Below are positions 36,036 to 36,265 of a DNA stretch of 64,000 bases, piece by piece; the first letter of the stretch is position 1, and every line of letters begins with the position of its first letter. Source of the DNA: Candidatus Heimdallarchaeum endolithica (GTDB lineage: Archaea; Asgardarchaeota; Heimdallarchaeia; Heimdallarchaeales; Heimdallarchaeaceae); assembly GCA_021513715.1 (NCBI GenBank), contig CP084167.1, positions 2,528,001 through 2,592,000 of the forward strand. The letters run 5' to 3'. The position numbers were made by a program, and so were the translations under genes. Under the pieces are notes generated by a model that was not told the origin of the DNA, did no database searches, and worked only from the letters and a program-made list of their open reading frames with translations.

Positions 36036-36265
36036 GCCTTCTATCGAGGACTTGTTAGAGGTTGTTTATGACAAACGATGAAAGCAAGAGCAAAAAGAAG
36101 GCTACAGCCTATCATATACGGGCTCTTTACCAAGTTGAGTGTGACACTCAGAACAATGAGGTTGAGTCAACCCTGATAGGCTACATTGGGTTCTCCTGAG
36201 GAGCTCTGCTAGCAGATGTGGGATTGTCCCAAAGATGAAGCTTAGTGTTAGCCTTGGGGGAACCC
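36036..36265 (+). ncRNA. Multi-hairpin H/ACA pseudouridylation guide RNA
   Basis: HP1 GCCTTCT(36036)/AGAAGGC + tACA(36104); HP2 GCCTATCA(36107)/TGATAGGC + tACA(36183); HP3 14-bp stem 36188-36265. Internal loops are present; AGA/GATGA K-turn-like motifs are clear in HP1 and HP3. Confidence 0.8.

Follow-up and report, generated by a model that had tools for sequence, protein, structure and literature searches.

A three-hairpin box H/ACA RNA in Candidatus Heimdallarchaeum endolithica, very probably an orthologue of the Pab40/Pf7/Afu4 guide RNAs

In the 64,000-nt stretch of Candidatus Heimdallarchaeum endolithica DNA analysed here (the window), 400 nt of intergenic DNA, flanked by a GNAT acetyltransferase gene in divergent orientation and by tRNA-Val(CAC), hold an element with a GC content of 46.5%, compared with 25% upstream of it and 32% over the whole window. 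A first-pass annotation had read positions 36036-36106 as an H/ACA guide hairpin directed at the peptidyl-transferase region of 23S rRNA and, further, as an Asgard counterpart of a eukaryotic snoRNA function. We asked what kind of RNA this locus encodes, which rRNA position it addresses, and whether it points to a special link between Asgard archaea and eukaryotes. The features of the locus are the following.

35449..35928, minus strand: GNAT acetyltransferase gene, divergent neighbour, context only
about 36001..36014, plus strand: BRE/TATA-like putative promoter GGGAAAGTTAAAT, ~29 nt upstream of the first stem
36036..36106, plus strand: H/ACA hairpin 1, predicted guide to host 23S U3697
36036-36042/36096-36102, plus strand: lower stem of hairpin 1, seen in the sequence
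36043..36049, plus strand: 5' guide ATCGAGG of hairpin 1, 7 bp with CCUCGAU
36058..36081, plus strand: K-turn and apical stem-loop of hairpin 1 (GA 36058-59; bulge GAT 36077-79; GA 36080-81)
36090..36095, plus strand: 3' guide of hairpin 1; GCAA forms 4 bp with UUGC and is followed by an A.C mismatch
36104..36106, plus strand: ACA box of hairpin 1, 14 nt from the start of the 3' guide
36107..36185, plus strand: H/ACA hairpin 2, guides ACGGGC (36118-23) and (C)AACCC (36168-73); ACA 36183-85
36188..36265, plus strand: hairpin 3, guides GAGCTC (36201-06) and GTTAG (36247-51); K-turn GA 36215-16 / GATGA 36234-38
36329..36403, plus strand: tRNA-Val(CAC), downstream neighbour, context only

At the Rfam gathering thresholds, only an SRP RNA and the tRNA are found in the window, the former being an archaeal SRP RNA (RF01857) at 22484-22791. 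Directly after tRNA-Val lies a C5 cytosine methyltransferase (PF00145, 36412-37398) with PPCE replacing the usual PCQ/PCN, and a 314-aa ORF at 31335-32279 resembles, by eye, a DDE (IS4/IS5-type) transposase.

Hairpin 1 has the build of an archaeal H/ACA guide, as the first-pass annotation had proposed: its lower stem, the pocket strands ATCGAGG and GCAAA, the upper stem bearing a K-turn-like motif and the ACA at 14 nt are all found at the positions given there. The proposed boundaries, in contrast, do not hold, since two further H/ACA-type hairpins (36107-36185 and 36188-36265) follow. The K-turn motif GA/GAUGA, to which L7Ae would bind, sits 8 nt plus the GA, that is, 10 layers, above the pocket (9-10 expected), and none of 200 shuffles folds as well (z -3.35). 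Every testable feature of the archaeal H/ACA class is thus present in hairpin 1 (stems and pocket, ANA at 14-16 nt, K-turn, bipartite pairing, proteins). The BRE/TATA-like motif noted earlier upstream is present as well: in 16 of 20 homologues from the family, the first regex match places a similar motif 29-31 nt upstream, and in the other four one can be seen at the corresponding place. The RNA is probably transcribed from this promoter of its own.

The predicted target lies in the host 23S gene (G000:2131431-2135566), where the site reads GGCUUGC-U-A-CCUCGAUG, with the core CUUGC-U-A-CCUCGAU. Around the unpaired UA, the pocket forms 7+4 Watson-Crick base pairs with the sequence at U3697 (11/12). 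Perfect pairing on both sides had been predicted; 11 Watson-Crick pairs do form, but the fifth base of the 3' guide faces an A.C mismatch. The string UUUGCUACCUCGAU, which had been derived from a UUUGC consensus, is absent from the host 23S, which has CUUGC instead, and a search of the host genome for it returned a single loose match, located outside rRNA. The U itself is present. When shuffled pockets were run on host rRNA, only 0.06% attained eleven pairs if a UN gap was required and 0.1% if any gap was allowed, and each target pattern is found a single time in 3.3 Mb (both strands), in the 23S. In fixed-pocket scans U3697, which adjoins the peptidyl-transferase loop, is the sole strong site; what counts against it is the 3' arm of just 4 bp. 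Under loose scanning, 16S U1372 (hairpin 1) and 23S U1121 (hairpin 2) also appeared, and were rejected as they need lower- or upper-stem bases, wobbles, a 3-bp arm or a shifted pocket. The host 23S gene is ~1,150 nt above the usual length; one insertion carries a 187-codon LAGLIDADG-like ORF, a second, AT-rich one is situated just ahead of the E. coli 2450 region, and a further insertion of ~150 nt occurs near E. coli 2600 in several relatives.

With the 23S gene being interrupted by introns, positions were numbered through local alignments with E. coli rrlB. These place host U3697 on E. coli C2496, as had been proposed, U3755 on U2554, U3787 on U2586, and U2699 and U2701 on 1915 and 1917. The proposed mapping to yeast 25S Psi2865 proved right as well: yeast and E. 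coli numbering differ by 369 to either side of the site (2826=2457 on one; 2921=2552, 2949=2580 and 2955=2586 on the other), so that E. coli 2496 corresponds to yeast 2865, which is listed as guided by snR46, located in the peptidyl-transferase center and conserved in human. For Pyrococcus abyssi the offset is 92, as seen from 2678, which equals Haloarcula marismortui 2621 and E. coli 2586; the positions modified by RluE, RluC and RluB are E. coli 2457, 2580 and 2605. The Pab35 sites 2549, 2672 and 2697 of P. abyssi are the RluE, RluC and RluB positions (PMC2377435). By this offset, P. abyssi 2588 is E. coli 2496; P. abyssi numbers are given by offsets throughout.

Hairpins 2 and 3 follow directly, are alike in build and fold with a z of -3.3 each. 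The most likely target of hairpin 2 is U3787, the equivalent of E. coli 2586, where AACCC pairs with GGGUU and, apart from one G.A mismatch, ACGGGC pairs with GACCGU, at 14 nt from the ACA; in other Asgard lineages the mismatched position is A or U and the remainder is kept. Since the pairing is retained there and a haloarchaeal homologue acts at the same site, 2586 is likely to be the ancestral target. This homologue of Pf7 stems II and III, sR-h45 of Haloferax volcanii, has two stem-loops that correspond in the same order to host hairpins 2 and 3 and guide modification of 2586 and 1915/1917; unlike the host RNA, it lacks a homologue of hairpin 1, has a 56-nt linker, and carries a helix-69 hairpin with an ACA that is needed (PMC7075261, PMC2584109). 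It is tempting to speculate that hairpin 2 of the Heimdallarchaeaceae gained a second target, A-loop U3755 (E. coli 2554; yeast Psi2923), although we regard this as rather unlikely. In that register the 3' arm would form 6 Watson-Crick pairs and a wobble at 15 nt from the ACA, and the 5' arm 4 contiguous pairs with three bases unpaired, which on paper fits slightly better than U3787; against it, the related genome G042 keeps the hairpin 2 guide words, yet its A-loop does not pair. Afu4 motif 2 was formerly proposed for the base beside this position (P. abyssi 2647), a proposal that was then doubted.

For hairpin 3, 6+6 pairs can be drawn around helix-69 U2699 (E. coli 1915), with three bases unpaired, a pairing that resembles the atypical one of stem-loop SL2 of Haloferax sR-h45 (PMC7075261). 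Its box is degenerate, with ACC (36262-64) in place of ANA and within the basal stem. Of the 20 family sequences, 6 have an ANA at 15-16 nt and the remaining 14, like the window, have none at 14-16 nt; an ANA is also present in other Asgard lineages. The haloarchaeal helix-69 hairpin became inactive when its ACA was altered (PMC7075261), and the activity of hairpin 3, judged from its sequence, is uncertain.

The element is well conserved among close relatives. Each of the family's 24 other genomes gave a BLAST match, which covers two or three hairpins in 22 cases and ends at a contig end in two; the copy in Ca. Heimdallarchaeum aukensis PM71, of the same genus (CP084166.1, genome G001), is 98.5% identical. 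In 20 aligned family sequences TCGAGG and GCAA are invariant, whereas the base after GCAA is A, G or T, as expected if only four bases of the 3' guide pair. All 20 have the hairpin 1 ANA (14 nt from the 3' guide start in 18, 15 nt in two); the 5' GA lies 8 nt past the 5' guide in 17, and the 3' GA 8 nt ahead of the 3' guide in all 20, a spacing that was itself used for parsing. RNAalifold recovers three hairpins with invariant guides, and 20 of the 49 consensus pairs show compensatory changes, which, the sequences being kin, are not independent events. The target side is also constant: wherever the 23S site was recovered (23 related genomes), the U and the bases beside it are retained. Of these genomes 22 read CUUGC, and the exception, G042, reads UUUGC and has the guide GCAAAC.

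Beyond the family, the first-pass annotation had suggested a covariance search across Asgard. A hairpin 1 model matches 56 of the 151 Asgard genomes, representing 17 out of 23 families, a count that includes the sequences on which the model was trained. Among 24 matches inspected, all outside the training set, 20 have CGAGG and 16 also GCAA with an ANA at 14-15 nt, and in many of them motif-2- and motif-3-like hairpins come after. Two genomes of another family in the same order (G030 and G026) have a lone hairpin 1 with both guides kept and no clear ANA box; G030 has C rather than U at the 2586 site, which fits the loss of hairpin 2 there. Outside Heimdallarchaeum's family, the three motifs are spaced by linkers of 17-30 nt (boundaries from rough patterns). 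Linker 2 forms pairs with the 3' tail that 0-3 of 200 shuffles equal in G045, G134, G054, G147, G154, G041, G052 and G077 (the pairing is weaker in G073 and G058), and linker 1 often pairs with linker 2, with sequences differing from lineage to lineage; this nested architecture is missing from the compact RNA of the window. A sub-threshold match to Pyrobac-1 RNA (RF01722, E 0.00057, L113:289-341) overlaps the third motif of the G045 orthologue.

We also considered whether the RNA could be an Asgard-specific forerunner of snR46-type snoRNAs, with guide and target common to Asgard and eukaryotes and missing from other archaea. The site equivalent to yeast Psi2865, the spread of hairpin 1 through the Asgard genomes, and the lack of this Psi or of the hairpin in Sulfolobus islandicus and haloarchaea would fit such a scenario. 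Yeast snR46 (Psi2865), snR191 (Psi2258/2260; hairpin 3) and snR10 (Psi2923; the candidate second target of hairpin 2) address the same rRNA positions and work with the same catalytic protein family, Cbf5. Eukaryotic H/ACA guides, however, have two hairpins, an H box and no K-turn, with Nhp2 in place of L7Ae. The host RNA has three hairpins, K-turn motifs in all of them and hinges (ACAGCC and ACATTG) unlike the H box ANANNA, and eukaryotic snoRNA family models in Rfam gave no match to it at E<=10. Above all, the same motif with the same target is carried by Pyrococcus Pab40/Pf7 and Archaeoglobus Afu4: Muller et al. 2008 described three motifs in Pab40, the first of which makes 23S Psi2588 (CMCT positive, and strong in vitro) and the third Psi2016 in helix 69, and for motifs 1 and 3 of Afu4 and Pf7 identical targets have been proposed (PMC2377435). 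As Pab40 motif 1 acts at P. abyssi 2588, the equivalent of 2496, both the modification and its guide are known outside Asgard, and the claim of an Asgard counterpart of a eukaryotic snoRNA function had to be given up. The architecture of the host RNA is archaeal, not that of a eukaryote-type snoRNA; no sequence-level match to the eukaryotic guides was found, so that with snR46 it demonstrably shares the site and not its descent, and we consider an Asgard-specific forerunner very unlikely.

The resemblance to Pab40 is, in contrast, extensive. Like Pab40, Pf7, Pho40 and Afu4, the host RNA consists of three tandem K-turn hairpins with short hinges, and it shares with this family the motif 1 guide CGAGG...GCRA for 2496, the motif 2 3' guide AACCC and the motif 3 3' guide GUUA for 1915. 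It differs from Pab40 in its AU-richer stems, in hairpin 1, whose K-turn has an apical stem where Pab40 has a K-loop, in hairpin 2, which lacks Pab40's extra stem-loop and fits 2586, whereas Pab40 motif 2 acts at 1932, and in hairpin 3, which lacks an ANA. In E-value mode, positions 35980-36269 match Rfam HgcG (RF00064) over the full model (1-276/276) at 44.3 bits (E 3.9e-11), the AT-rich leader, which the model includes, contributing part of the score. The guide words align in the same order, the pocket of the HgcG consensus motif 1, when run on host rRNA, has U3697 as its best site, and the targets of motifs 1 and 3 correspond to those of the family (the 2496 and helix-69 1915 equivalents, with P. 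abyssi numbering by offset). The three tandem motifs of HgcG are thus present, and an ANA follows the first two of them, the third being followed by ACC. The score stays below the gathering threshold of 77 bits, which is probably why the RNA is unannotated, and none of the 151 Asgard genomes reaches this threshold with RF00064. A pattern scan of metagenomes for euryarchaeal Pab40 yielded chance matches only (0/80 loci match the model).

An H/ACA sRNA independent of Pab40 that converged on the same sites, with the Rfam match reflecting a generic H/ACA shape, would explain the sub-threshold score and the low primary-sequence identity of the stems, and the guide words are necessarily common to any guide for the same site. 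We nevertheless hold such convergence to be highly improbable, since three motifs with three matching targets stand in the same order, the other H/ACA model match, HgcE, has an E of 0.29 where HgcG has 3.9e-11, and relatives in at least eight Asgard families match HgcG too. Taken together, the data make us confident that the RNA is an archaeal box H/ACA sRNA with three hairpins, which represents Pab40/Pf7/Afu4 in Heimdallarchaeum and is a predicted guide, although very probably an orthologue of Pab40 rather than a formal member of RF00064. That it might be structured and conserved yet unproductive as a guide, at least in hairpin 3 (an RNA chaperone for the pre-50S or a relic), as the degenerate hairpin 3 box, the AA instead of GA in the 5' strand of the hairpin 2 K-turn in the window and the experimental failure of predicted H/ACA targets in 6 of 21 cases in P. 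abyssi (PMC2377435) could suggest, is extremely improbable in view of the hairpin 1 guide, K-turn spacing and ANA at 14-15 nt kept in 20/20 family and 16/24 distant matches, which an active guide would be expected to show, and of the strong activity of its orthologue, Pab40 motif 1.

The proteins that such an sRNA would need are all encoded by the host, namely Cbf5, Nop10, Gar1 and L7Ae. Host Cbf5 appears as two TIGR00425 pieces in one open frame, with the catalytic motif GHSGTLDP and an insert of ~490 aa between them; by eye, this in-frame insert (gene at G000:C1:1889049-1891559) has intein-like ends (Cys...Asn-Cys) and LAGLIDADG-like motifs. We therefore propose, by analogy with known archaeal guides, that the orthologue of Pab40, once transcribed from its own BRE/TATA element, would assemble with L7Ae at the K-turn of each hairpin and with Cbf5, which together with Nop10 and Gar1 would occupy the lower stem and the ANA box. 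Hairpin 1 would clamp the 23S on both sides of the unpaired UA, and Cbf5 would turn U3697 (E. coli 2496; P. abyssi Psi2588; yeast Psi2865) into pseudouridine. Hairpin 2 would most likely guide the same reaction at E. coli 2586, and hairpin 3, though without a clear ANA box, at helix-69 position 1915 and perhaps also 1917.

What we describe is an ordinary archaeal guide RNA, and hairpin 1 reveals neither a eukaryote-specific trait in Asgard nor a special link between Asgard and eukaryotes. The kind of RNA, the site and its eukaryotic connection were already known, P. abyssi 2588 being one of four sites highly conserved in eukaryotic rRNA (PMC2377435). The Asgard record is new: our literature search found no description of H/ACA guides in Asgard, and the Pab40/Pf7/Afu4 guide, known from Thermococcales, Archaeoglobus and partly from haloarchaea, is now extended across the Asgard phylum, for which the Rfam HgcG model needs widening. 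If U3755 were indeed also a target of hairpin 2, one Asgard RNA would span three conserved eukaryotic sites (those of snR46, snR10 and snR191), one of which is missing from the P. abyssi and S. islandicus lists consulted. More generally, the finding supports the suggestion made in 2008 that pseudouridines at 2496 and at the helix-69 sites are old and were probably present in the archaeal host of eukaryotes.
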